Shown here in pieces: positions 4,248 to 23,365 of a DNA stretch of 64,000 bases. This DNA is from Calditrichia bacterium (lineage in GTDB: Bacteria; Calditrichota; Calditrichia; JAJRVZ01): contig CAWCNS010000007.1 in NCBI GenBank assembly GCA_963796965.1, positions 194,167-258,166 of the forward strand, given 5' to 3'. Position numbers and translations under genes: made by a program. The notes under the pieces were generated by a model that made no database searches, was not told where the DNA came from, and saw only the letters and a program-made list of their open reading frames with translations. Position 1 is the first letter of the stretch; the number at the start of each line of letters is the position of its first letter.

Positions 4248-5995
4248 GTAACGGCGCGATGAAGAGGCTGTGTAGAAACACAGCCTCAATACTTTATTTT
4301 TAAGTAAATTTTCAGATTTTTAGTTGTTCTTTGACAATATTATTCCAAAAATGCCCGATTTAGGCAATGAAAAACAAAATGACTTAGATATCAAGCCATT
4401 TTCCAGTCATATCTCTGAATCATATCCATAATATCCTGATATGATTCAATAGATAATAATCGCCTAAAATTATAAACGGTCGTGAAGATATTTATTTCAG
4501 TTGTCACTTTTTTCTTACCTCGGAGAAGCAATGGAATTTTTCCCATCCAATATTTAATCGTACCAAAGGGATGCTCAACCATTTGCTTGCGAAGATGGAT
4601 CATTTTCTTAGCGGTGATGCCTGACATACGACGACGATAAATATCACGCCAACTCTGATTATGATAACGTTGGATAAGACGTCCATATTTAGAAGTTGTA
4701 CATTGGGTTCTCAACATGCATCGGTCACATTCAATACCTTGATAGACATCGTATCGTTGACCGTTATCAACTTTGTTTTTCTGTTTTCTTATTAATCGTT
4801 TACCTTCTGAGCAACGGTATTCATCTTGTTCTTCATCATAGTTAAAAGTGATAGGGCGATCATCATATCTGTGTTTTGGCCTTGGAACATAACAGGTCGT
4901 TTGATTTGTATTTTCGACGTTTTCTATCTGAGTCAGGTTATAGTATCCGCTATCGGTAACGGCAGCCTCAGGTATTAAATCTGTTTCCTGTTCTAATTCT
5001 TTGAGCATCGGTTCTATAAGATTGGTATCGTTTGAGGCATCAAAAACGTGGCTGTGGGCGATCATGTGATGGGCCTGATCAACAGCAATCTGGGTATTAT
5101 AGGCTGAAATCATTCCATCGCGACTGCGCATTAAGTTAGCCTGTGGATCACTCTGGCTAATAGAGGTTCGTGATTGTGATAGTAAAATATCTTTTTGTTT
5201 TTGCAGATTTTCTACCTGTTTCTGAAGTTTGGAGATTTTATCAAGCAAGACCTGATTCGTACTCCGGGATCCTTGAAGTCATCATCGGAAGAAGATTCGT
5301 CAATTTCTTCTAAAAGATCTTCCCGGCGATCATTTATCAATAACTGTTCTAAATATTGATCAAGTTTTTTGTCCAAGTGGTCTAAACGATGTTCAATTTT
5401 CTTGATGGTTAGCATATCTTTGTTGGTATTGGCTTTCACCTTGCTGCCATCAATAGCAATCAATTTTCCCTGGATGTAACCCTTGTCTCTAAGAAAGTGG
5501 CGAAACTTTTTAGTAACATATTTAATTGCAGCAGCATTATCTTTGCGGTAGTCAGCAATACTTTTATGATCGGGTTTAAGGTTGCCTATAAGCCAAATAA
5601 CTTCGATATTACGATGACATTCGCGTTCTAATTTGCGGCTGGTTTTGATGCTATTTAAATAACCATAAAGAAAAAGTTTTAACATCGTTACAGGGTTATA
5701 GGCGCGGCTCTAAAGTCTTTTGCCCTTATAGGCAAATTCTTCCGGTTACTGACACAATAGCGTCAATAAGAGCATCGATCAATCGAACGTAATGGTCATA
5801 GGGAACCAAGTCATCGAGCGATTGCATGAAAGTAACCTGGTTACGATCATCTGGAAAAATATAATGCATAGATATAGTCCGGTTAATTTTAAATAATTAA
5901 CCTAATTTAATAAATAACAATATATTATGTTAGATTTCTTTAAAAATTTGAGGTTGTGTGGTTGTTTTCACACAACCTCTTAATCGCGCCGCTAC
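4248..5995. mobile_element. IS1182-like (IS5/IS1182 superfamily) insertion sequence, ~1.75 kb, with ~40 bp imperfect terminal inverted repeats
   Basis: Left end gtaacggcgcgatgaagaggctgtgtagaaacacagcctcaa (4248-4289). Right end, reverse-complemented, is gtagcggcgcgattaagaggttgtgtgaaaacaaccacacaacctcaa (5948-5995). Each IR contains its own small hairpin. The IRs bracket the transposase ORFs. Confidence 0.7.
4391..5685 (-). CDS. Transposase, IS1182-like, split into two ORFs (5685..5212 and 5248..4391) by a single frame change
   Basis: N-terminal InsH-like domain (FLYGYLNSIKTSRKLERECHRNIEVIWL...PDHKSIADYRK), central coiled coil, C-terminal DDE region (AVTDSGYY..., HPFGTIKYW). The frame change lies near 5212-5248. 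Confidence 0.7.
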
Positions 5996-6125: not shown

Positions 6126-6632
6126 TTACGGTGTATACCAGATCGGTGAGGTATAAGCCCTCTCCTGGGTAATCATGGGAACTTCAGGGCCCATCTTAAT
6201 ACCAAAGCGTTTTGCCTCATAGGCTGTCCAGCGCGGGGTGGGGATCTCAATCACCCGGGCATAATAAACAGCGCTTAACTTCGGATCGAAATCAGGGTCT
6301 TTCCAAACCGCAATCATTTCTCGGGTAAAGCCGGATATACCTACCGCTTGTTCAGTCAGAATCTGATTGATTTCTCCACGTTCAAGAACGACAAAGTTTG
6401 TATTACTGCGAAGAGCAGTTGCCAGCATGGCCGAAACGGTCCGGCCAAATTCTACTTCTTTTGCCTGGGCATTGGCATCATAGAAGGGTAACACAGCAAT
6501 ATTTGGCTTTCCACGGAAAATATAATCTTCTTCCAGGAGAGAGTCAGAATCTGAAATCGAGATAATTTGCCCAAGGCAAGGAACAGTTAATATTAATAAA
6601 ATGATTAAAATGAGTTCTGTTTTTACTATCAT
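6126..6632 (-). CDS. Small secreted/lipoprotein with CsgG/TolB-N-like fold
   Basis: Signal peptide, then IAVLPFYDANAQ...FGRTVSAMLATAL...FVVLERGEINQILTEQ. This resembles the periplasmic module of the nearby kinase. Confidence 0.35.
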   Translation of the reverse strand: MIVKTELILIILLILTVPCLGQIISISDSDSLLEEDYIFRGKPNIAVLPFYDANAQAKEVEFGRTVSAMLATALRSNTNFVVLERGEINQILTEQAVGISGFTREMIAVWKDPDFDPKLSAVYYARVIEIPTPRWTAYEAKRFGIKMGPEVPMITQERAYTSPIWYTP

Positions 6633-7670: not shown

Positions 7671-9036
7671 ATGAAAAGAGTCTTAATACTATTCATGGGT
7701 ATCATAGCCCTGATATCCATGATGAGTTGCTCTTCTTCAAGAAAATCAGCAAATATACCCCAGACAAGACCATTGGCCGAAAAATATACAGATGCCAAAC
7801 AATCTATTAGAGAGAAGTCAGAAGTTGATCATTCTTTCGTTCTAAACAAAGATACCTTATCAATGGCGGAGGCTATTCAGCTGGCTTTATTACATAATCC
7901 TGAACTTCAGTCGTATTCCTTTGAAATCAGGGCAAGGGAAGCGCGTACTTTGCAGGAATCCTTTGCTCCCAATCCTGAAATCGAATTTGAACTTGAGAAT
8001 TTTGCAGGATCCGGAGAACTAAGCGATTTTAAAGGATCAGAATTCACGGTTTCCGTAGGACAATTCATTGAACTGGCAGGTAAAAGGGACAAAAGAACAC
8101 AGGCTGCGGTCTTGCATAGTGATCTTTCTGCCTGGGATTATGAAGCAAAAAAACTTGACATATTACGCATACAGTTAAGCAATATCTGCAACTGATTGGC
8201 GACCAGAAACAGATTGCTTTGAATAAAGAATTAGTAAATGTATCAGAAAACCTTAATCACGCGGTAGTCAGACTCGTTAAGGCTGGGAGAACATCAGCTG
8301 CGGAAATATCGAGAACACAGATATTACTCTCAAAAGCACAACTGGATTTAAACAGATCCATGAGAAAATTTGAAACAGATCGTTTTCGACTATCTTCCCT
8401 GTGGGGTAAAACGTTTCCTGGTTTTAAATCTGTTAGAGGATCATTAGATAATGTTGCAGCAGATACCGCCTGTAGATAGTCTGAAAAAGTATTTATCAAA
8501 AAATCCTGATATTGTTCGCTGGGCAACAGAGATAGAGATGCGCCAGGCGATCGAATCATTGGAAGAGGCCAAAAAAATTCCTGATCCAACTATCCAGGCC
8601 GGATATAGACATATTACCGAACCAAATTTAAATGCCTTTAGTGGCAAATCTTTCCATTCCAATTCCCGTATTTAATACTAATAAAGGTGCTGTCCAGGAG
8701 GCCTATAATCGTCGCAAGAAAGCAGAAGAACAACGCCGGCAAATAGAAATTGCGATCAGCACAAACCTTAATAGAATTGTATCAAAATCTTTTGGTCACT
8801 ATATTCCGAAATTGATAATTCAAATAAAATCATCATTCCGGAAGCAGAGAAAGCTTATCAAATTATAAATGAAGGATATCTTCTAGGTAAGTTTAGTTTT
8901 TTGGATGTGCTTGCAATCTCAGAGGACATTGTTTGAGGCACGAAAATATTTGATTACAGCGTTAATCGAATATAATATCCGTGTTGCTGAAATGGAAAGA
9001 CTCATCGGGCGATCTCTATCGACGGTCAAATTTTAA
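7671..9036 (+). pseudogene. CzcC/TolC-like outer-membrane efflux factor, interrupted by at least 5 frame changes
   Basis: Lipoprotein signal (MMSCSS), then OMF motifs (LSMAEAIQLALLHNPELQ..., coiled-coil segments) spread over ORFs 7671-8195, 8219-8479, 8451-8675, 8632-8868 and further out-of-frame pieces to ~9036. Confidence 0.55.
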
Positions 9037-9375
9037 TAATAAGTATGTTAAGTTAGGCTGAAGTATAGAAATTTTTAGACAGGATAACAGGATTAACAGT
9101 ATGTCATTTTCTTTTAAATATCATGAGATGCGAAACAAGTTCAGCATGACTTATCCAGGTATTCCGAACCCTGGCCTGTCGCCAGAAGAGGCTGTGTCTG
9201 AATCTATAAGATCTTTTGTATCCTGTAAATCCTGTTATCTTGTCAAAATATTTGTTATTTCTGGTTAGGTGGATTGTCCTGTTTATTGTGAAAAAAAAGG
9301 AATAATAAAAATGAAAATCAAAGATTTTTAATCATTGATATGTATTTGTTTTTTCGTGTTTGTCTTTTAATTGTA

Positions 9376-10255
9376 ATGAAAAAAATGCGATAGTGGAGGA
9401 TGAACATAATGAGGAACATGAAGAATGCGGGAATTCATCTTAAGTGAAGATGAAATAGCAGAATTTGATATCACAATTGGGGTAGCAGAACCGGGAAAAC
9501 TGCAGGTGCATATTACTGTCCCCGGAGAAGTTGTGGTTCCACCGGATAATCTTGCCCATATTCATCCCAGGTTTCCCGGTATGGTTAAGGAAGTAAAAAA
9601 ACATATCGGTGACAGTGTCCGTGAAGGGGAGATACTGGCAATTATTGAGAGTAATGAAAGTCTGACCGAATACCAGATCAAATCTTTAATCGACGGAACG
9701 ATTATTGAAAAACATATTACCAGGGGTGAAATAGTTGAAGGTAATACTGATGTCATGGATTTGTCGTTGCGGATCTCAGTGAGGTCTGGGTTTGTCTGAA
9801 TCTTTACCAGAAAGATTTGTCCTTCTGTAAAAAAAGGACAAAAAGTCACCATTTCGCTTGGACAAGGTCTAGAAGAGGTTAACGGGAGAATTAAGTATAT
9901 CTCTCCCATTATAGATGAGACACCCGAACGGCAACTGCCCGGGTGGTTTTACCTAATCCTAAAGGCTTCTGGAAACCAGGTCTTTTTGTCAACGGCACAA
10001 TTATTACAGAAGAATTTAGGGCTAAGATTGCGGTTCCTAAAACGGCAATAGAAACGATTGATAATAAACCTTGTGTGTTTGTAAAATCTGATAAGGGTTT
10101 TGAACCGACGATTTATTACCCTGGGGAGAAAGAATCAGACACTGGTTGAGGTTACAATGGTCTGGAGCAGGGTGAAAAATATATAACAAAAGGGGCCTTT
10201 ACCCTAAAAGCCGAACTGCAAAAGGAAATGTTTGGTGATGGACATGGGCATTAAG
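9376..10255 (+). pseudogene. CzcB/CusB-like membrane fusion protein, interrupted
   Basis: Out-of-frame N-terminus ..EEHEECG..IAEFDITIGVAEPGKLQVHITVPGEV.. continues into 9425-9799 (..HIHPRFPGMVKEVKKHIGDSV..ILAIIESNES) and 9943-10149 plus a tail ending ..DGHGH. Confidence 0.55.
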
Positions 10256-10411
10256 TAATGAATATCACAATTGACACGAAGCTAACGCATTGCGCATAGG
10301 GCAAAGCAAAGCGCAAAGCAATGAAATGATTTTACGGTTTTAACATTGCTCTATGCGCCATGCTCTATGCCGAAGATTATATAGATTTCATTTAAACTAA
10401 GCGAATAACAA

Positions 10412-13513
<3,102 letters not shown>

Positions 13514-13561: not shown

Positions 13562-15302
13562 CTATTTATCCGTTTGGACCTTAAGTTCCTTTCGATATAA
13601 GTCCAGCATGCCCGCTTTGGAAATCAAGCCTTTAAATTTTCCTGCTTCGACAACAGGTAAACTCCAGGTGCTGGTGTCATCAAACTTTTTCTGAATTTCA
13701 GAAAGACTGTCTGAAAGGGATACGGTAATGAGGTCTGTATGCATCAATTCTTCCACAAGGATCGTACTTTGTAATGCCTGATCAAAAATTAATTCCTTGA
13801 TATCGTTAAAATATATCATTCCCAAAAAGTTCTCATTATCCCGGTCAATTACAGGAAAATAGTTGCGCGGAGATTTTTTTATCACGGGTACAAGTTCTTT
13901 TAATGTATAATCCGGATAAATTGGAATTTGATCTTGTTCAAGAAGTTCAATTGGTTTAATATCAGCAAGTATGCGTCCATCGGTCCTGGGTCGGTGTAAA
14001 AGGCCCTTTTTGATCAGTTCATAATGATAAATAGAATGATGTTCAAAGAAGTGGACAATTGCCGGTGATAAAAACGATACAAGTAAGAGGGGCAAAATAG
14101 CATCATATCCATCTGTAATTTCAATAACTAGAAATATACCTGTTAATGGTGCATTTAATATACCACTGATCAGGCCTGACATCCCCATCAGAGCATACAG
14201 ACTGGAGCCACTCAACATTATCTGTGGGCTAATAGATTTGACAATAGAATAGAATAAAAAACCAGTTGCGCTGCCAATGACTAATGCGGGTGCAAATACA
14301 CCCCCAGCACCCCCAGCTCCGAGAGTAAAGGAAGTGGCAATTATCTTGAAAATAACCACCAGAAATATCAACATCATCCCCTCATCAAATCGCTCTGAGA
14401 TAATGTTTTCAACAAATTCGTAACCTTCACCCCTAACTTCTGGAAGAAAATATACAATAAAAGCAACCGGAATAGCACCAAAAGCAGCCCTGGTTAAGGG
14501 ATTTTTGAATACCGTAGAAAGCCTATTAGATGTACCACGTAAAAATTTTATAAAGATAACAGAAAAAAACGCACACATTATAGCAAGTCCCACAGCGGCA
14601 TTAATATCGGTTATCGAGACATTAATTTCATGATGAGAAAAGGGAATCTGATTCCCACTTAATAGCCTGCTTACTTCTGTTCCGGTAACCGAAGCAACAA
14701 CGACAGGTAATAAATAAACAGGAGTCCATTCTCCAATAATCACTTCCATTGTAAAAATTATTCCTGTTAAAGGGGCATTAAATATTGCCGCAATGGCCGC
14801 AGCAGCTCCCGATCCAGTAACAGCAATTCGAATGCGTTCATCGGTTTTAAAAAATCGTGCAAAATTAGAACCAATTGCTGATCCGCTAACAACTATAGGG
14901 GCTTCGGGACCGGCAGAACCTCCGCTTGATATGGTTATAAGGCTGCCAATTAATTTTGATATGGCTGATCGAAGCCTTATTTTGCCACCTTTGAGGCTGA
15001 CACTATGAATGACTTCAGGCAATCCATGCCCACCAAAATCCTTAATAATGTATTTTAAGAAAAATACTGTAAGAACTATTCCGAGAACAGGCAGAATAAG
15101 CAGGAAATATTCGGATTTGTGTCCGTTTAAAAAACCAGACTATATATTTAAGACTAAAAGTCAAGGCAACAGCAGCTAATCCACTTGTCACACCGACAAT
15201 AAATCCCATAACACCCAGTTTAAAGCGTGAATTCAGGTTAATTAGAAATTCCTGAATTGAAACCTTAATCCGAGAATATTTATTTATAAAAATTTTTCTC
15301 AA
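13562..15302 (-). CDS. ClC-family chloride channel/antiporter with C-terminal CBS pair (one frame change near 15022-15130 separates the N-terminal 86 aa)
   Basis: ClC selectivity motifs GGSAGPEAPIV and GGAGGVFAPALVIG, then two CBS-like segments. The 15042..15302 ORF supplies TM1. Confidence 0.8.
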
Positions 15303-15960
15303 GATAATTTATTCGGTTTAAGAGATTTTTATCTTTATTCCGGTTATGTAATATATCTAATAGTCTTTTGTCTTTTAAGGCCTGACTTATCCGGGATAAT
15401 ATCATTAAATGATCTTTTGTGCTATTAGTAAAAATCATAAATAATATGGATACCGGATTGCCATCAATAGCATTGAAATCAATCTGTTTATTTAAAAAAA
15501 TAACGGGTAGATAAATCTCATTTAAGCCAATCTGGAGTCTTTCCCTAGTATGCGGAATGGCAATACCATTACCAATGCCTGTAGAGGCCAGTTCTTCACG
15601 ATTTAGTAACTCATGCAATATAATTGTACGGTCGACTGTTTTACCAAATGAGAGTTGATTTATTACATTTTCAAATACTTCGATAATATCTTCACCATGC
15701 ACATTATAATAGATTCCACCCCTTTCTATAGCTGGGGCCAATATCTGATTATCATATTCTATATCTGCTTTTTTATCTGTCCTCACATTGAAATCATGTT
15801 CCTTGGCCCATTCAAGTATCTCTTTGCGATTAAAACATTTTTTATGTTTGATAAGTTTAGAAGGTATTTTACCCTGATGATCCCACCTCTGAACGGTCAC
15901 AAGAGGTAAATCAAGCAGTTCTGCAACCTCTTCCGAGGATAAATTCTCTTTATTTTTCAT
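15280..15960 (-). CDS. Regulator with N-terminal excisionase/MerR-like HTH fused to a PTS EIIA type-2 (EIIA-Ntr/fructose-type) domain
   Basis: N-terminus is an HTH: EEVAELLDLPLVTVQRWDHQGKIP. C-terminus has the EIIA-2 active-site region GIGNGIAIPHTR and a second motif IDGNPVSILFMIFTNS..HL. It overlaps the ClC start, indicating an operon. Confidence 0.75.
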   Translation of the reverse strand: MKNKENLSSEEVAELLDLPLVTVQRWDHQGKIPSKLIKHKKCFNRKEILEWAKEHDFNVRTDKKADIEYDNQILAPAIERGGIYYNVHGEDIIEVFENVINQLSFGKTVDRTIILHELLNREELASTGIGNGIAIPHTRERLQIGLNEIYLPVIFLNKQIDFNAIDGNPVSILFMIFTNSTKDHLMILSRISQALKDKRLLDILHNRNKDKNLLNRINYLEKNFYK

Positions 15961-16413
15961 GTAATGGTCTCAAATATATTTTATAATAAATATGAGCATA
16001 GGGGCAAAGATAATCTTTGTAACTATTGAATTTATCGAATATTTCTATCAATTCAAAAGGCATTCATATTGTGACTGACTATTGGATGTACATTTAATCG
16101 TTTTGGTTCTTAACTAATAAAAAAATGCACCATGGGATCAAAGGTATAACAATTGTACAGGATAAACGATTAATTCTACATATACCTGTAATTTGATGAA
16201 ATATTTGTCATAAACAGTTGACTTACTTAAGGTTATGACCTTATATTACTAGGTGTTGAGATATAAGTAAGGAAAATTGGTAAGCTTCCGTGGAAACGAT
16301 AAAAGCTTGTTCCGCAAATTTATGGATTCGGTGTGCCATTTCACCATAATTTATCTCTCGTCGGTTAGCATTTCATTTTTACTATCAGAATATAAAAATA
16401 TTAGGGTAAAACC

Positions 16414-17663
16414 ATGGAACTCATAGGAACGCCTAAACTGGAATTGAACACAGAAGCCAAACGCTTTATTAATCTATATAGCTCTCTCGGAGAGCGTGCT
16501 GAAAATTTCCTCCCGGATCATATATTTGAAAGTCTTAAAAACTTTGCCCGTATATGTTGTGAAGAACCCGATGATCCAAACCGGTTGATCGCTTGAGATC
16601 TCACAAACGTCTGCTTGGAACTTAAAGAGGCAATTCCCGGATATATTGATGTCTCATTAATGATTTTTCCTCATGAGAGTTCAAAAAATTATGAATATTC
16701 CAACCGTCGCCGCTTATTTACAAATCGTCTTAAACATTTAATGGATATCGAACTCATCGATGAACAGCAAAAAGTCCAGGTGAAAAATATATTAAATATG
16801 CATGATTATTCCCTCGGGTACACCACCGGTTACCAGACAAATGATAGAATTTCTATATCGGGTAATGGTTGGTGATGAAGTCCGGGAATTGCGTAAATTC
16901 CGCGATATTTTAGGTATTACCGGATATGCTGGAAGTCGCCCAGTGGAATTACTTGCTCGATGTTATCGATCAAATGGTCGTCCAGAGTACACATTATACA
17001 ACCCAGACAGAACAGAAACGCCTTTTTAGTACGTACTGAATCTACTGTTAATTTTAAAGGACTAAATGGTTTTATCCGTACGGTTGTATCGGGAAGTACC
17101 GAAACAGTCAGTAAACTTTTCGTGAGGAGATTTTTGGTCCTGACGTGGTTAAAACCATAGAATTCCTCTCCCCGGAGCAGGTCTATAAAGAAGTAAGTCA
17201 GGATACGACCAGTATCTTTCTTATAAAGGCTCGACATCTTCGCTCAAATCCTTTAAAAGATATGAAATGGTTCCCTCATTTGAGCAGGATGATATTTGTT
17301 GATGATTCTATGGAAGCCCGTGCAACCAATACCACATTGGTTTTCGCATTTCATAATGAAATAATAAATACATTGAATAAAGTCCATACAAAGAAATTAG
17401 GGGCTGCTGCCAATACACAGTTAAATCTGCGTCTGATTCTGGAAAAAGTGAATGTTAAAAATATTAGTCGATTCCGGGAGGCTGCTGAGGCAAAAATCAA
17501 AGATTATGAAGAAGAACTTAAGCAGTTAAAGAATGAGCAACTTGCTGATCCGAAAAAACCTGAACAGGATATTATTTTATTCAAGTTTGATGAATTTGCC
17601 AGGCAGATATTAAAAGATAAATATATCATTTCCAAATTCGCCGGATTTCCTGACATTTATTGA
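16414..17663 (+). pseudogene. Uncharacterised gene(s) on one strand, broken into 5 overlapping ORF fragments
   Basis: ORFs 16414-16596, 16615-16875, 16802-17029, 16960-17160 and 17145-17663 form an overlapping same-strand chain typical of a long gene with indels. No recognisable motif. Confidence 0.3.
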
Positions 17664-17670
17664 ATATATA

Positions 17671-19931
17671 ATGGATGCTTCCAAACATAAATCTATAAAC
17701 CGGGTATTGATGGATGAATTTGAATCGCGGATGAGAGATTATTTTTATGCCGGAAGCAGTGATGTTTATATTAAAACCATCGTTGAGGGTGGCGGCCGGA
17801 ATCAGATTAAAACCTATGGTGAGTATCTGCTGCAGAAAAATCATAAAGATCTCAGTGCAGCAGGTAATTGAACGCTGCCGGGTTATTCTCGAAGTTTTAC
17901 CGGATAATTATGAACGGACCCTGCATACCCATTTTCATCGCAATTTCGGTCTGAATCTGTTTCTTGAGAGATATAAAGAATATCTGACAAAAGTAGAAAA
18001 TGAAGCAAACAATAAGGGCCGTTTCCGTAACCTGTTGATTGATTTGGGAATTGAAGCCAAATACAACCGGCTCAATAAGGAACAACAAAAAATTATAAAG
18101 GAATTTATTTCCAATCTGGGCAATCTGGAGAAGACTTCGATTTCAGATGATGTCCAGATGATTATCCGCGATATTGTCTTGAATGTTTTTACTGCCAAAC
18201 CTTTTATTTTTCTTAACCAGCAGGCAGCCTGGGAATATAAAGATCTTTTCCCGATTGAGAAATTCGACGTCAATCCCTTTGATATCGAAATCGAGTTAGA
18301 TGAACTTGGGCAGGATCGATTATGACCGCTTTTTAACAAAAATGGAACGTATTAAAAGTTCCTTCCAACTTTTTGATGAGTCCGGCAGTCTCTGGGATTT
18401 GTTCTGTTCAAATTCTACAATACTGGTCAATGATCCATCAAATCCGACCGGTTTTACAGATTTTAATAATCAGGCCCTTTTTGCGTTTCCTGAAATTTAT
18501 GTCAACAACACAATTGACCCTATTTCTTGATGAAGCCTACAATGATGCTGTTAAAATTGAAGATCCGGAGGAACCGAAGTGGCGTACCATTTCAAGATAT
18601 ATCATAAATAATATTTCGGCTTTTTCCCGTATATCCATGGTTGCTTCGCTTTCAACAACAAAGAATCTGGGCGCGACCGGAGACCGTTTAGGTGCCCTGG
18701 CGGTAACCGAAGCAAGAAAGGATGCTCTTGAGTTCGCATCAGAACATTCTGACATTGATTGCACTAATTCCAATTCATTATTTCTTCTGGTAAATGTTCT
18801 TGAAGTTGCCCAGCAGGCTCGTAAAATAAAACAGGAAATCGATGAGAATTTACCAAAAGACGCTTCACGGCAAATTATTAAAAACAAACTTGAAAAATTT
18901 ATTCAATTGCAATTGCAGGCGAATCAACCGCAAATGATCAATACTAGAGAAAGGTGCTCCCCGGCGGGAATCACTTTTCGAAGGTAGCCCCCTGCATCTT
19001 TTTCTTCTGGATGAATTAGTTTCCTTAGACAGACTCGAAGTACTTGAACTACCGGATGATTTTAAGTATAAGGGAGAGGCATTTTTTAGTTATTATAAAT
19101 CCCACATTGTAAATGAATTAAACAGTTTTAGGATTAACCGCATATTTCCGGGCTGAATCGAATAAACGTCTAAAATTGGCCAAGGAAGTTGCCCTGGAGG
19201 CCATTGCCCAGGAAAAATGTGAAAATATCCGTGTGCTTGAATCGGATGGATCCTACCTGTTCAATCTTTCTTTGCAGAACTTTTATTCTTATCTGGATCT
19301 GGAAAAGTTCACTCAAGCCCTGGCAGAAGAACGCGGATTAGCAGCAATCCCCTTTCCAACCGGATTAGTTCGTTTCTCATTGGGTGGCTATGTTGAGGGA
19401 ACAGAGCGGAGTTACCAAATCTTTCGAGCTGAAGTAAAAAATGCGGTTGAATTGTTCCTGCGATATTGGAAAAAATTTAGCACATTAAAAGAATCAGGTG
19501 ATAAAAATTCTGAAACAGATTCTGTTTTAGGACAGATTTTCGCTGGGGAAACAGATACAGCATTTGTCAACAATGTCCTAAATGACTATTCACAAATCCG
19601 GGATCTGAAGAAAAATATACTAAACAGTCTGAGAATCAGTGAAATTAAAACTATTTATCATCCTTTTCCCGATGTCAGTGGCGTGACCATAAATTCAATC
19701 GGTGATTCAAAAAATGCTGTGATTGAATTCTATGAGAATATTGGCCAATGCCCTGATCTGCCTTCTTTTATTAACAGCAAGGCATTTTCAAAGGTATATG
19801 AGAATATATTGCCTCAGATTCATTATAAAATTCCGGCTTTGCGCAATTTGGATATCAATACCGTTCTGACAAAGTATGGAAAACCTACCCTTTTAAAGTA
19901 TGTCACCGGTAAGTTGGAATTTCCAGCCTGA
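17671..19931 (+). pseudogene. Class I/II PLP-dependent aminotransferase-like gene, interrupted, possibly with extra inserted/fused regions
   Basis: ILVNDPSNPTG (18300-18530 frame), LFLDEAYND and SLSTTKNLGATGDRLGA (PLP-lysine S-x-S-x-K...G-x-R-x-G; 18373-18987 frame). A C-terminal-domain-like segment RGLAAIPFPTGLVRFSLGGY sits in 19176-19931. Confidence 0.45.
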
Positions 19932-20232
19932 TTCTCACTTGCTGGATGATCCGGATGAGCTTTTAATTATGTTGGAAATATTAATTGAACTTGAACGTAT
20001 ATTATTTTCAGATTCTAAATTCAAGGTTGTCGCTTTGCGTGCCAATGAAAAGGACCCGGCGGGTGATTTGGCCAAACTTGAAGGCTATAATGAAATTCTG
20101 AAGAAGTTCATCGGCGAACTTTTACTTCATTTCAATTTACCTTTCGAAAAGGAATTATCTGAACCTTCTCAGGAGCAACTTCTTCGAATCAGCTGGCGAT
20201 GTATTCGAGAAAATCACTGGAAAGTCAATTAA
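19900..20232 (+). CDS. Hypothetical ORF fragment overlapping the preceding ORF's end (possible frame-shifted tail or small separate gene)
   Basis: Overlaps 19176-19931 in another frame; no motif recognised. Confidence 0.2.
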   Translation: MSPVSWNFQPDSHLLDDPDELLIMLEILIELERILFSDSKFKVVALRANEKDPAGDLAKLEGYNEILKKFIGELLLHFNLPFEKELSEPSQEQLLRISWRCIRENHWKVN

Positions 20233-20421
20233 CGAGTTGAGTATTGCCCTTGGCTGGTGATGAATTGCTGCAAAAAGTTATGGAGGATAAGGATCTGAAA
20301 TTGAACATCCCTATTCCCGACTTATATTGGATATTTTTCAGGGGATATTCAAAACAGAATTTTAAATCCAGAGACTGATATTCCGTAGAACAATTATTAA
20401 AAATCTATCAGCTTTTATCAG

Positions 20422-23070
20422 ATGAAAATTTTACATCTGATATTATCCGATTCATTAGCAAAGATCAGTGCGGAATTACAAAATCATGATGAACCGGATA
20501 CAAAATTATTTGCAGAACATTTATTGGCAACTAACCTTAAATATATTTATGATCGTATCGAACAAAAACGTCACTTTAAAATATCTGGCAAAGATCTGCC
20601 TATAGCCATCAGGGATGTTGTTCTGTTCTTAACGGGTTTGATGAACCGTTCAAAACAAACTGATTATTATAGCAGATACAACCATATTCTCATAAAAATG
20701 ATTTATTTACAGTACCAGCAGCAAAATTCAAGTTATAATGAGATGATTCAGCATGGTATTACATTACATGAAGGTATTGCGGATTTTAAAAACCAGGAAT
20801 TGGTCGAATATGAAAATGGATCCCTCAAATGGATAAATGAGGTCATGGGCAAATGTGGAATAATAGCAGCAGAGCAACCTGTACAACGTCATACCCGGAT
20901 GAATACAGATGCAAAAAAACGGGAATATCCGTTTCATAAAGTTGATCGGATTGAAATAGAGGAACAAAAGACGGATGTGGATTCACCACGGGATTTTATC
21001 AAGAATATGCAAACCCGACCCTCAGGCCGATTCTTTAGTAATCGGGTGGCAAAATTCGTGGAAAATATGGATGCTGATGATTACCGTTGTCGAATTGTTA
21101 ATGATGGCTTAATGAATGAATTGTATATTATTCAGAAGTCTTATATGAAATACCTGGCAGATAATTTGCGCTTGTTAAATCCTGGTGCTGTAAGTCTGAA
21201 AGAAATTAAAGAATTTGTACCGGATATTATTCTTTTTTATGGTGCCCCGGAAAAAGTTATTTCATACCCACATGTAGGTTATTTTGACCTCAATGGTCCG
21301 CAGGGTAATATAAAAACAATGATTACGCCGCTAGAAACCAAAGCCGATTATTTTGGCAATATCAAAAAACCCCGATTGACCCTTCTAAATGAGAAAGTAA
21401 AGGAAATGGGCGGTGTACCTATTCACGGCTCATTTGTTGTTATCGAAAGCGAGGATGGCAGTCTGTTTGGTGTGATGATTGCTGGAGATAGCGGTGTCGG
21501 CAAATCAGAAATGCTGGCAGCAATGATGCTTAAGTGGATCCAAAAAGATCTCAGTGGTATTCGTTCAATAAAAATGGTGGCCGGCGACATGCTGCACGTT
21601 TTTCCGGATAAAGAAGGTAATCTTTATGGTATAGGTACAGAAGTCGGCGATTTCTCCAGGGTAACTGACTTCGATCCGGAATTTATACGTATGTATAATT
21701 TGCTGTTTGAAAGCAGTGCGGATAGTAATGTGGAAGATTTGAATTCCCGTAGTACGTTTACAGGATTCTGTGATATAAATATGCCTTTCAAGATCGATAT
21801 TATTCTTACTGCGCAAAATTACGGCCGGACAGAGGCAGGTATAATAAAATATTCAAATGTGGAGAATTTTATGCTTTACCGTGATTCCCATGGTGAACGT
21901 AAAGAGAAGGCAACAAGCTCTGATAATCCGCATTTTCAACGTACATTACTCAGATACACAGGTGATAAAAATATCGTTGAAGTTTTAGATTTTCATGGTA
22001 ATTATCTTGATGATGTTCTGGATTGGGAAAGAGACACTTTTACGGGTAAACATTACCTTTCCTCTTCCTATAAAAGGATTGACCGGATTGATGTTGAGGA
22101 AATTGTAAGTAAGATATTTACTGGTAAAATTTTTGAAGACCAGGACATTGAATACACGATTAGAGATGTTAAGTTTGATATCATAAAAAACCGCTTTAAT
22201 GCCAGGGCGGTTTCGAATCAGGAAGACAGTGCGGAAGAGATATTTACCATTGACCGGACTCTCTTTAGTCAGATTTTTAATTCCCTGGCCAGTACACCTG
22301 CAGGTAATCCCTTCATCAATGAACATGAAGAACGTGAGGTGCGCCGTCGTCTGATCCATGTGTTAAAGGGTGGTGACAACGGTGAAGGGAAGGGGCGAAA
22401 AATTCAATGTGCGATTTTGTCGACAGATCTGGGTAAAAAAGGTAAGGAGATTGCCGGACCGCAGAAAGCAGCACAGGAAGTTAAAAAACTTGTTCAGGAA
22501 GTCCGGACCAGCCGGCCGGATATTACCGCTGCCAGAAATCTGGTAAAAAAATCCATTGAGAAACATTATGGGGCTCTGTTCAGAGATCATAAGAAAAGTC
22601 TGGAAATTGAACGGTATAATTTTAATTTATATCAATTGGAATTAATGCGTAAGGCAAAATTCGTACGCATCGATGACATGGCCACACCAATTGACATTTC
22701 TCGTCTTAAAGGTTTTCAACCATTGCCGGCCAATCGCACGTTTAATCCGCTTCTGGTTACACCAAACATTAATATTGAACTTAATAATTTTAGTGAAACC
22801 TATGAACAATTGATGTGGATTCCAAACAATGAAGAATTCGCGGAGAAATTTTATAATGATTGTGAAAATCTGTTTATAGCTTCTGGTTATAGTGATTCAA
22901 CAATCGTAAACAACATCATTGTCCAACTTCTGTTATTGAATGGTTATATTGCGGTAGAGGATTTATCGCGTGGAAAATTAACCGAAAAAGCTAACCGTGA
23001 AACCATCGCTGCCGCCAAATTTGCAGCTGTTAAAAAATACAGGGAGGCGGTTGATATAAAGCCTGATTAA
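20422..23070 (+). CDS. Large (882 aa) uncharacterised protein with an embedded HPr kinase/phosphorylase-like P-loop core
   Basis: Intact ORF. Residues ~440-520 read PIHGSFVVIESEDGSLFGVMIAGDSGVGKSEMLAAMM...IKMVAGDMLHVF...GIGTEVG. This matches the HprK/P C-terminal signature (HG..v...G.GvLi.GdSGiGKSE...lvaDD.v....EiRG.G). The GKSE Walker-A variant is characteristic of HprK rather than PEPCK or RapZ. Confidence 0.6.
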   Translation: MKILHLILSDSLAKISAELQNHDEPDTKLFAEHLLATNLKYIYDRIEQKRHFKISGKDLPIAIRDVVLFLTGLMNRSKQTDYYSRYNHILIKMIYLQYQQQNSSYNEMIQHGITLHEGIADFKNQELVEYENGSLKWINEVMGKCGIIAAEQPVQRHTRMNTDAKKREYPFHKVDRIEIEEQKTDVDSPRDFIKNMQTRPSGRFFSNRVAKFVENMDADDYRCRIVNDGLMNELYIIQKSYMKYLADNLRLLNPGAVSLKEIKEFVPDIILFYGAPEKVISYPHVGYFDLNGPQGNIKTMITPLETKADYFGNIKKPRLTLLNEKVKEMGGVPIHGSFVVIESEDGSLFGVMIAGDSGVGKSEMLAAMMLKWIQKDLSGIRSIKMVAGDMLHVFPDKEGNLYGIGTEVGDFSRVTDFDPEFIRMYNLLFESSADSNVEDLNSRSTFTGFCDINMPFKIDIILTAQNYGRTEAGIIKYSNVENFMLYRDSHGERKEKATSSDNPHFQRTLLRYTGDKNIVEVLDFHGNYLDDVLDWERDTFTGKHYLSSSYKRIDRIDVEEIVSKIFTGKIFEDQDIEYTIRDVKFDIIKNRFNARAVSNQEDSAEEIFTIDRTLFSQIFNSLASTPAGNPFINEHEEREVRRRLIHVLKGGDNGEGKGRKIQCAILSTDLGKKGKEIAGPQKAAQEVKKLVQEVRTSRPDITAARNLVKKSIEKHYGALFRDHKKSLEIERYNFNLYQLELMRKAKFVRIDDMATPIDISRLKGFQPLPANRTFNPLLVTPNINIELNNFSETYEQLMWIPNNEEFAEKFYNDCENLFIASGYSDSTIVNNIIVQLLLLNGYIAVEDLSRGKLTEKANRETIAAAKFAAVKKYREAVDIKPD

Positions 23071-23276
23071 TTAGTATTGAGGAAAGATCGTGTCAAAAAA
23101 AAGAAATATTGTTAAAATTGTTGAAAATGCTATTGATACGGTTTATTTCTTTCTTTAAATTATATGATTCTACTCGAGATGGCGTAGTTAGATCCTGAGA
23201 CGAGCTCAGGATGACAGTATGGTCGTTCCGAGCTTGTTTCGGAATCTGTTCTAAACCCGATTAAAATGTAAATGCC

Positions 23277-23360
23277 GGGGAGGTTGCGGAGCGGTCAAAC
23301 GCAACAGACTGTAAATCTGTCGACTGAATGTCTTCGGAGGTTCGAATCCTCCCCTCCCCA
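23277..23360 (+). tRNA. tRNA-Tyr (anticodon GTA), type II with long variable arm
   Basis: Acceptor GGGGAGG/CCTCCCC, anticodon stem ACAGA/TCTGT with loop CTGTAAA, variable arm CGACTGAATGTCTTCG, T arm GGAGG-TTCGAAT-CCTCC, discriminator A. CCA is not encoded. Confidence 0.9.
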
Positions 23361-23365
23361 CAACC

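Follow-up and report, generated by a model that had tools for sequence, protein, structure and literature searches.

We analysed an open reading frame (ORF) of 882 codons in a 64,000-nucleotide stretch of DNA (the window) from a Calditrichia bacterium (GenBank assembly GCA_963796965.1, contig CAWCNS010000007.1, positions 194,167 to 258,166). A first-pass annotation had read this ORF as an intact gene for a domain-shuffled HPr kinase/phosphorylase (HprK/P) acting with a nearby EIIA regulator of the phosphotransferase system (PTS). Our best explanation overall, with a probability of roughly 0.8, is that the ORF belongs to one giant gene, that the fragmentation of this gene is probably artefactual, that its product may be a multifunctional enzyme, and that there is neither an HPr kinase nor an EIIA module. 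As judged from the sequence, the ORF is the in-frame 3' end (the last 40%) of one gene of 2,212 codons, which joins a pyridoxal-phosphate (PLP) aminotransferase-like domain to a domain resembling phosphoenolpyruvate carboxykinase (PEPCK):

16414..23070, plus strand: giant gene, aminotransferase + PEPCK-like fusion of ~2,212 amino acids (aa), delimited by tblastn, DNA alignment to the orthologue L003 and the ATG at 16414
20422..23070, plus strand: 882-codon ORF, uninterrupted from ATG to stop; 3' remnant of the giant gene
20422..20443, plus strand: accidental ATG and first ~7 codons, off the ancestral frame according to alignments to L001 and L003

The product of the ORF is 100% identical to database protein P0001. 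Of the 74 relatives that a database search with it yielded, those aligned over 96-99% of the ORF were much longer (up to 1,544 aa); many were marked partial, and some carried PF00155 or bore the name "aminotransferase class I/II-fold PLP-dependent enzyme". In tblastn, the homologues P0069, P0008, P0046 and P0080 (1,972 aa) were collinear with the window from 16414 to 23070. The match path ran through frames 1, 3, 1, 2, 3, 1, 2, 3 and 1, with several in-frame stops between 20230 and 20420. Hence, the interrupted aminotransferase-like ORFs, previously described as lying between the kinase and the regulator, are the 5' 60% of the same gene. The ancestral frame across the ATG at 20422 reads ...LLSDE(E/N)...; one-base insertions at 20380 and 20388 shift the frame and another at 20443 restores it, so that the start codon and the first ~7 codons of the ORF are accidental. 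The ORF is thus uninterrupted, as first described, but it is not an intact gene: it is a fragment with an out-of-frame ATG. Its 882-aa architecture exists as a protein nowhere else, the real unit being the ~2,212-aa protein that includes the aminotransferase.

Relatives of the giant gene turned up in at least 270 species when genomes were scanned, and 80 loci were retrieved for locus comparisons. In 69 of these, a single open frame of 2,200-2,243 aa, measured from the first Met, spans the gene; eight others run off a contig end, and the remaining three are broken. The carriers belong to the Bacteroidota (Marinilabiliales, Bacteroidales and others), Ignavibacteriota, Calditrichota and KSB1. L003, the closest relative, comes from an uncultured Calditrichota metagenome-assembled genome (MAG), shares 93% aa identity and is intact at 2,212 aa. 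A full-length alignment of 38 sequences has a mean column identity of 68% and 454 invariant columns, and the indel-corrected window protein is collinear with the full-length homologues and keeps 454 of the 454 invariant positions. The family is conserved and has no characterised member. Database labels are "hypothetical protein" or "aminotransferase", and a literature search found no description of the family. From N- to C-terminus, the architecture comprises a region of ~620 aa with no assignable fold, the PLP aminotransferase-like domain, ~500 aa that match nothing, the PEPCK/HprK module and a helical C-terminus of ~260 aa.

The gene is also split or truncated in other public assemblies, and fragment annotations of the family are therefore common. 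In a Saprospiraceae MAG (134,944-bp contig), it is divided into P0069 and P0045. In Geofilum rubicundum, it is fragmentary as P0046/P0080, and the product stops near residue 1,972, where ~2,220 would be expected. One of the copies in other assemblies is frameshifted exactly at the P-loop.

The interruptions were located by aligning the DNA of the window (16300-23100) with the intact orthologue (L003:955-7590). Identity was 87.6%, with 22 indels, of which one lies upstream of the ATG and 21 within the gene:

16589..20443, plus strand: all 21 intragenic indels, from the pairwise alignment with L003

The window has 19 insertion events relative to L003 (20 nt; 18 of +1 and one of +2), at 16589, 16601, 16614, 16815, 16931, 17015, 17646, 17863, 18305, 18478, 18946, 19144, 19923, 20180, 20250, 20301 (+2), 20380, 20388 and 20443, and two one-base deletions, at 17121 and 20329. 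None of the 21 intragenic indels is a multiple of three, and none occurs after 20443. As it stands, the window sequence therefore lacks the single uninterrupted ORF that is typical of the family. After correction, the translation is 2,212 aa long, has no internal stops and is 93% identical to L003 at the aa level. It retains all residues that are invariant in 38 family members, both in the 5' part (244/244) and in the 3' part (210/210). Relative to L003, the nonsynonymous divergence (dN) is 0.036 in the broken and unbroken parts alike, and its ratio to the synonymous divergence (dN/dS) is 0.065 in the broken and 0.038 in the unbroken part.

Damage is also found upstream of the giant gene. Nearly every gene is fragmented in the window between 4391 and 15302, unlike the region from 23.6 to 64 kb, where genes are long and intact:

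4391..5685, minus strand: DDE transposase, fragmented, split in two ORFs
6126..6632: DUF3604/CsgG remnant, a fragment
7671..13486: OEP / HlyD / AcrB-type efflux operon in many pieces (frames 2, 3, 2, 1, 2)

Taken with the giant gene's 21 indels, the damage points either to a stretch of ~16 kb with a poor consensus or to a decaying island beside an insertion sequence (IS) element. We consider it very probable that the fragmentation arose technically, in a ~16-kb stretch of the assembly that was poorly polished, in which case the organism makes the full-length protein. This is because the 21 indels are all non-triplet, insertions outnumber deletions 19:2, no nonsense mutations or losses of invariant residues accompany them, and the neighbouring genes are fragmented as well.

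Rather improbable, in our view, is that the giant gene is a genuine but very recently inactivated pseudogene, with the 882-aa ORF as a non-functional or accidentally expressed remnant. The 21 frame-shifting indels and the fragmented neighbours fit such a history too, and so do several observations that speak against an artefact. The split IS transposase at 4391..5685 is equally in keeping with real decay of the region. Within the supposedly bad stretch, about 2.1 kb comprising the EIIA gene and most of the ClC gene (see below) is free of frameshifts. Moreover, the insertions are not confined to homopolymers, as only about half of them extend a base run. Relaxed selection, however, has left no sign: the two halves have the same dN, the broken part has a dN/dS of 0.065, and nonsense mutations (0) and lost invariant residues (0/244) are absent. 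From typical indel:substitution ratios, 21 neutral indels should have been accompanied by roughly 100-200 substitutions and several stops. The 19:2 insertion bias is also opposite to the deletion bias of bacterial pseudogenes, which Mira, Ochman and Moran are said to have described in 2001.

Two further explanations of the indels were tried and rejected. A homopolymer-only error model fits poorly, given the share of insertions that extend a base run, and programmed frameshifting was dismissed because there are 21 sites, none of them conserved, and the orthologues are in frame. A separate observation concerns the synonymous divergence (dS) from L003, which is about 0.42-0.72 over the first 3.6 kb of the gene and about 0.9-0.98 over the last 3 kb, with the same dN. 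The switch falls near the point where the indels end. Mosaicism/recombination or a chimeric consensus could account for it.

The 5' part of the gene encodes the aminotransferase-like domain:

18312..18921, plus strand: class I/II (fold-type I) PLP aminotransferase-like core with NDPSNPTG, DEAY and S-T-T-K...R, split over frames 3 and 1

In the homologues P0080, P0069 and P0087, PF00155 scores 36-43 bits against a gathering threshold of 19.7. The motifs NDPxNPxG (670-677), DEAY (703-706) and S-T-T-K747...R755 are invariant in 38 sequences. The domain thus combines a gathering score in homologues with the PLP lysine (K747) and the N-P-x-N-P-x-G and D-E-x-Y motifs of class I/II aminotransferases. 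When solved structures were searched by sequence with the ORF and with three family profiles, the matches were confined to the P-loop or due to chance, apart from one profile match to 1-aminocyclopropane-1-carboxylate (ACC) synthase (1iax, E 2.7e-4), the only such match of the protein in the PDB.

The 3' part, i.e. the 882-codon ORF, contains the P-loop module. Residues below are numbered in the ORF:

21019..22281, plus strand: PEPCK/HprK-superfamily catalytic module, ORF residues 200-620; confident model core at about residues 210-490
21346..21369, plus strand: DYFGNIKK, aligned by hhalign with PckA YGGEMKK (Y207, K212, K213)
21424..21510, plus strand: HGS (His335), then Walker A GDSGVGKSE (355-363, nt 21484..21510), aligned with PckA H232-C-S and G248-T256
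21580..21591, plus strand: AGDM (387-390), single-Asp counterpart of the post-P-loop acidic motif
21742..21756, plus strand: NSRST (441-445), aligned by hhalign with PckA NTRVS (R333)

The motif string reported initially is present, as IHGSFVV (334-340)...GDSGVGKSE (355-363)...VAGDM (386-390)...GIGTEVG. It lies at residues 334-405, with the P-loop at 355-363, and not at ~430-520 as had been stated. Within the family, D309, Y310, G312, K315 and K316 of DYFGNIKK are invariant, as are A387, G388, D389 and M390 of AGDM and N441, R443, S444 and T445 of NSRST. The HprK/P-like trait of GxSGxGKSE with a preceding His was confirmed, since H335, G336 and G355-E363 are likewise invariant; this stretch also matches positions 9-63 of the Hpr_kinase_C profile. 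Since the P-loop does not vary among 38-50 family members, and neither do the His upstream of it and many residues on either side, the motif is no chance match.

The assignment to HprK/P itself did not survive the profile searches with hidden Markov models (HMMs). Hpr_kinase_C reached 19.0-21.3 bits (E 1e-3 to 2e-4) against a threshold of 33.3, TIGR00679 reached 17.7 against 240, and Hpr_kinase_N had no match in the ORF or in full-length homologues. What holds of the claimed HprK/P C-domain signature is therefore the motif string and membership at the level of the PEPCK/HprK superfamily. Among 50 family members, sub-threshold Pfam matches were to NACHT (48), nSTAND3 (24), PEPCK_ATP (23, best E 1.5e-3, cut-off 26.5 bits) and Hpr_kinase_C (17); the PEPCK_GTP threshold was not reached either.

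The structural predictions pointed to PEPCK. An AlphaFold model of residues 200-620, aligned with 152 relatives of this region, had a mean predicted local distance difference test score (pLDDT) of 72 and a predicted template modelling score (pTM) of 0.76, with pLDDT 78-93 for model residues 10-290. In a Foldseek search of this model against the PDB, the top 50 matches were all PEPCK, the best being Escherichia coli PckA (E 1e-9), so that the PEPCK-like fold expected of the domain was borne out by prediction. The domain model replaced an AF2 model of the whole 882-aa ORF, which was poor (pLDDT 59) and of low confidence, yet gave the same Foldseek answer. The predicted fold fits both the HprK C-domain, which has a PEPCK-like P-loop topology, and the PEPCK catalytic region, which consists of part of the N-domain and the nucleotide-binding C-domain. 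In ECOD, HprK is placed in the PEPCK catalytic-domain topology group (PMC7758060).

Alignment with hhalign against E. coli PckA gave E 3e-5 to 7e-5 with a probability of 63-74%; the alignment with E 3e-5 covers 237 columns (PckA residues 148-411). The catalytic residues of PckA are Y207, K212/K213, H232, S250/K254/T255, D268/D269 and R333 in E. coli numbering. The alignment pairs Y310, K315/K316, H335, S357/K361/S362 and R443 with Y207, K212/K213, H232, S250/K254/T255 and R333, respectively, and all these paired residues are invariant in the family. Only D389 answers to D268/D269, in a register against PckA that is uncertain between hhalign and manual inspection; the acidic motif after the P-loop is GDD in PEPCK, ADD in HprK and xDDMG in relatives of ~580 aa. 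The P-loop domain is better described as PEPCK-like than as HprK-like, and the giant protein is probably not an HPr kinase.

An unrelated NTPase, for instance of the NACHT/STAND type, in which GKSE would belong to a generic Walker A, can practically be dismissed. The sub-threshold NACHT and nSTAND3 matches in 48 and 24 of the 50 members would agree with such an NTPase, as would the Rab and ABC P-loop matches in PDB profile searches, but all of these span only about 30 residues around the P-loop. Hence, neither a generic Walker A nor a lack of likeness to the HprK C-domain, which the first-pass annotation had named as grounds for abandoning its claim, was found: the predicted domain is structurally similar to the HprK C-domain, and its P-loop is not generic.

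An exhaustive, profile-free search with residues 200-620 gave the 152 relatives in three tiers, namely the giant family itself, a second giant clade and an unannotated family of about 530-600 aa. Members of the second giant clade have 2,000-2,217 aa, are 31-37% identical to the first and also carry PF00155. The small family, with proteins of ~580 aa (loci L084-L168, e.g. L160:5044-6777, L143, L113 and L086:954-2633), has no Pfam or NCBIfam model; more than 477 metagenome stretches carry it, and its sources are gut, activated sludge and Pseudothermotoga. The family has the motifs DYFGYxKK, IHG, GDSGAGKSE, xDDMG, GTEIGAFVR and NARV. One relative, P0150, scores 25.2 bits with PEPCK_ATP against the cut-off of 26.5. 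Of 80 small-family loci, with the core detected by phmmer, 7 have a gene for an AspC/TyrB-like aminotransferase no more than 300 bp away, and 10 have one no more than 4 kb away; the two genes often overlap at start and stop, which indicates translational coupling in a subset. A general linkage of the small family with an aminotransferase, seen in three of the first four loci, was given up after this larger sample and is kept as supporting evidence only.

What the protein does can be proposed tentatively. The PLP domain would interconvert an amino acid and its 2-oxo acid, and the PEPCK-like domain would carry out metal- and nucleotide-dependent phosphoryl transfer on that oxo acid, with or without (de)carboxylation; the default candidate would be aspartate <-> oxaloacetate <-> phosphoenolpyruvate. 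A functional link between the two domains is suggested by their fusion in both giant clades, the invariance of both motif sets and the gene adjacency in the small family. On these sequence features, a multifunctional metabolic enzyme coupling transamination to PEPCK-type chemistry is a possibility that we hold with some reserve. Slightly more speculative is the idea that the giants and their ~580-aa cousins form an unrecognised branch of the PEPCK/HprK superfamily that couples PLP transamination to phosphoryl transfer/(de)carboxylation, e.g. by channelling between aspartate, oxaloacetate and phosphoenolpyruvate.

Several findings weigh against this enzymatic interpretation. No HMM match to PEPCK_ATP or Hpr_kinase_C reaches its threshold. 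Of the Asp pair in GDD/ADD, the giants retain a single residue, and a low-confidence hhalign extension (probability 35%) did not place an equivalent of PckA R65. About 1,400 aa (the N-terminal ~620, the middle ~500 and the C-terminal ~260) match nothing. No conserved neighbour serves as a functional guide, as even the commonest neighbour cluster, defined de novo, is shared by just 9 of the 80 giant-gene loci, and the giant gene thus has no operon context. Finally, no more than about 10% of the small-family loci have an aminotransferase gene nearby.

It is unlikely that the full-length protein is a signalling or regulatory protein in which the PLP domain senses an amino acid, as in MocR/GabR, and the HprK/PEPCK-like domain phosphorylates a protein, as in HprK/P. 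The P-loop GxSGxGKSE does end in the Ser-Glu typical of HprK, and the large size and long helical regions resemble those of scaffold proteins. However, the PEPCK-specific motifs that lie beyond the HprK core, Y..KK and NxR, are invariant, domain searches found neither a helix-turn-helix (HTH) nor any other output domain, no partner gene is conserved, and the PLP catalytic motifs are fully invariant, as they would be in an enzyme.

The neighbourhood of the giant gene was compared with the same 80 related loci. The features on either side are not part of the giant gene:

15280..15960, minus strand: HTH_17 + PTS_EIIA_2 regulator (Pfam 1.3e-25 and 4.2e-9)
13562..15022, minus strand: ClC chloride channel with CBS, its 5' end apparently lost to a frameshift (Voltage_CLC 4.5e-75, CBS 9e-14)
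23277..23361, plus strand: tRNA-Tyr (GTA), found by ARAGORN, 206 nt 3' of the stop codon

The regulator does contain HTH_17 and PTS_EIIA_2 and lies on the opposite strand, as first noted, but the distance given, ~4.5 kb, does not hold: it is divergent from the true start of the giant gene at 16414, with a spacer of only 453 bp. The tRNA-Tyr gene lies just downstream, as had been reported. The EIIA gene is directly upstream of the ClC/CBS channel gene on the same strand; the ClC gene is probably its more natural partner, and the pair may be unrelated to the giant gene. An EIIA homologue was found in 0 of the 80 loci, as were homologues of the other window neighbours, i.e. the ClC channel, a membrane-fusion protein, an RND pump, a GNAT protein and a methyltransferase. 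The proposed PTS-Ntr-like module thus has no comparative support, and a crude motif scan of the window found no active-site motifs like those of HPr or enzyme I (EI). Homology with L003 ends within about 200 bp upstream (16210..16403) and a few bases downstream (23077 on) of the giant gene. Hence, this highly conserved gene, 87% identical between two Calditrichota genomes, sits in different contexts in the two. An inverted repeat of 8 bp (ATCCTGAG...CTCAGGAT) was seen at 23187..23212, between the stop codon and the tRNA-Tyr gene, with no obvious T-run; it may be a terminator or a processing hairpin.

These results leave very little room for a free-standing 882-aa HprK/P-like kinase working with the HTH-EIIA (Ntr-like) regulator as a phospho-relay of the PTS-Ntr type. 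The EIIA gene is its immediate divergent neighbour, and the domain falls within the HprK/PEPCK superfamily. Nevertheless, the ORF is a fragment with a fortuitous ATG, no EIIA homologue occurs in the related loci, even L003 has no flanking DNA in common with the window, and the EIIA gene is co-oriented with and adjoins the ClC gene. The sub-threshold HprK HMMs, the lack of an HprK N-domain and the lack of HPr/EI motifs in the window point the same way. The giant protein forms no conserved module with the HTH-EIIA regulator, whose proximity is coincidental.

The novelty lies in the combination: two known kinds of protein, the PEPCK/HprK superfamily and a fold-type-I PLP enzyme, are joined in a conserved fusion of ~2,200 aa. 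The original reading would mislead by taking a gene fragment made by frameshifts for a domain-shuffled kinase paired with a PTS regulator. For annotation the correction is of consequence: the genome record carries the 882-aa product P0001, and other drafts split the gene or call it "aminotransferase". The family merits attention for its 68% mean column identity over several phyla, its dN/dS of about 0.05 and its presence in at least 270 species genomes. Should the protein couple a transaminase to a carboxykinase-like activity, anaerobes of sediments and the gut would gain a new reaction module in their carbon and amino-acid metabolism, and the family would represent a central-carbon or amino-acid node specific to anaerobic bacteria of the FCB group that annotation has missed.

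Compared with the class I/II aminotransferases (PF00155; AspC/TyrB, ACC synthase), the giants share an above-threshold score in homologues and the invariant motifs NDPxNPxG, DEAY and S-x-x-K...R. In contrast to these enzymes, only about 130-160 residues match the 361-position model, the domain is enlarged and forms part of a giant protein, and scores are far under every NCBIfam equivalog cut-off. With the ATP/GTP PEPCKs (PckA; PF01293 / PF00821), the module appears to share a collinear series of motifs: Y-x-G-x-x-K-K, H-x-S and Walker A, then an acidic residue behind the following strand, N-x-R and K-x-x-T/S-x-(E/D). Sequence identity is about 12-14%, however, with all Pfam matches below threshold. 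The P-loop ends in S-E, as in HprK, instead of the T-T of PEPCK, one Asp of the GDD pair is present, an R65 equivalent was not found, and the module is embedded at residues ~1450-1950 of 2,212 aa and fused to a PLP domain. The pyrophosphate-dependent PEPCK of Propionibacterium freudenreichii (8e1u, 1,126 aa) is without an aminotransferase domain; its structural score with the giant module is lower than that of the ATP/GTP PEPCKs, and a sequence match is not detectable.

HprK/P (PF07475, TIGR00679) shares with the giants the ECOD topology group (PMC7758060) and the arrangement HG...GxSGxGKSE...xxD. The match covers only profile positions 9-63 of 171, though, and no HprK signature loop is recognisable by eye in the giant protein, which has 2,212 aa where HprK/P has about 310 aa and has neither Hpr_kinase_N nor a conserved PTS neighbour. 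The closest sequence relatives outside the giants are the ~580-aa proteins annotated as "hypothetical protein" (e.g. Pseudothermotoga HOK83673.1), with about 30% identity over ~280 aa and E down to 1e-18. They have DYFGxxKK, HG, GDSGxGKSE, GTExG and NxR in common with the giants, but stand alone, have another N-terminal half, keep the DD pair (xDDMG) and occur in other lineages.

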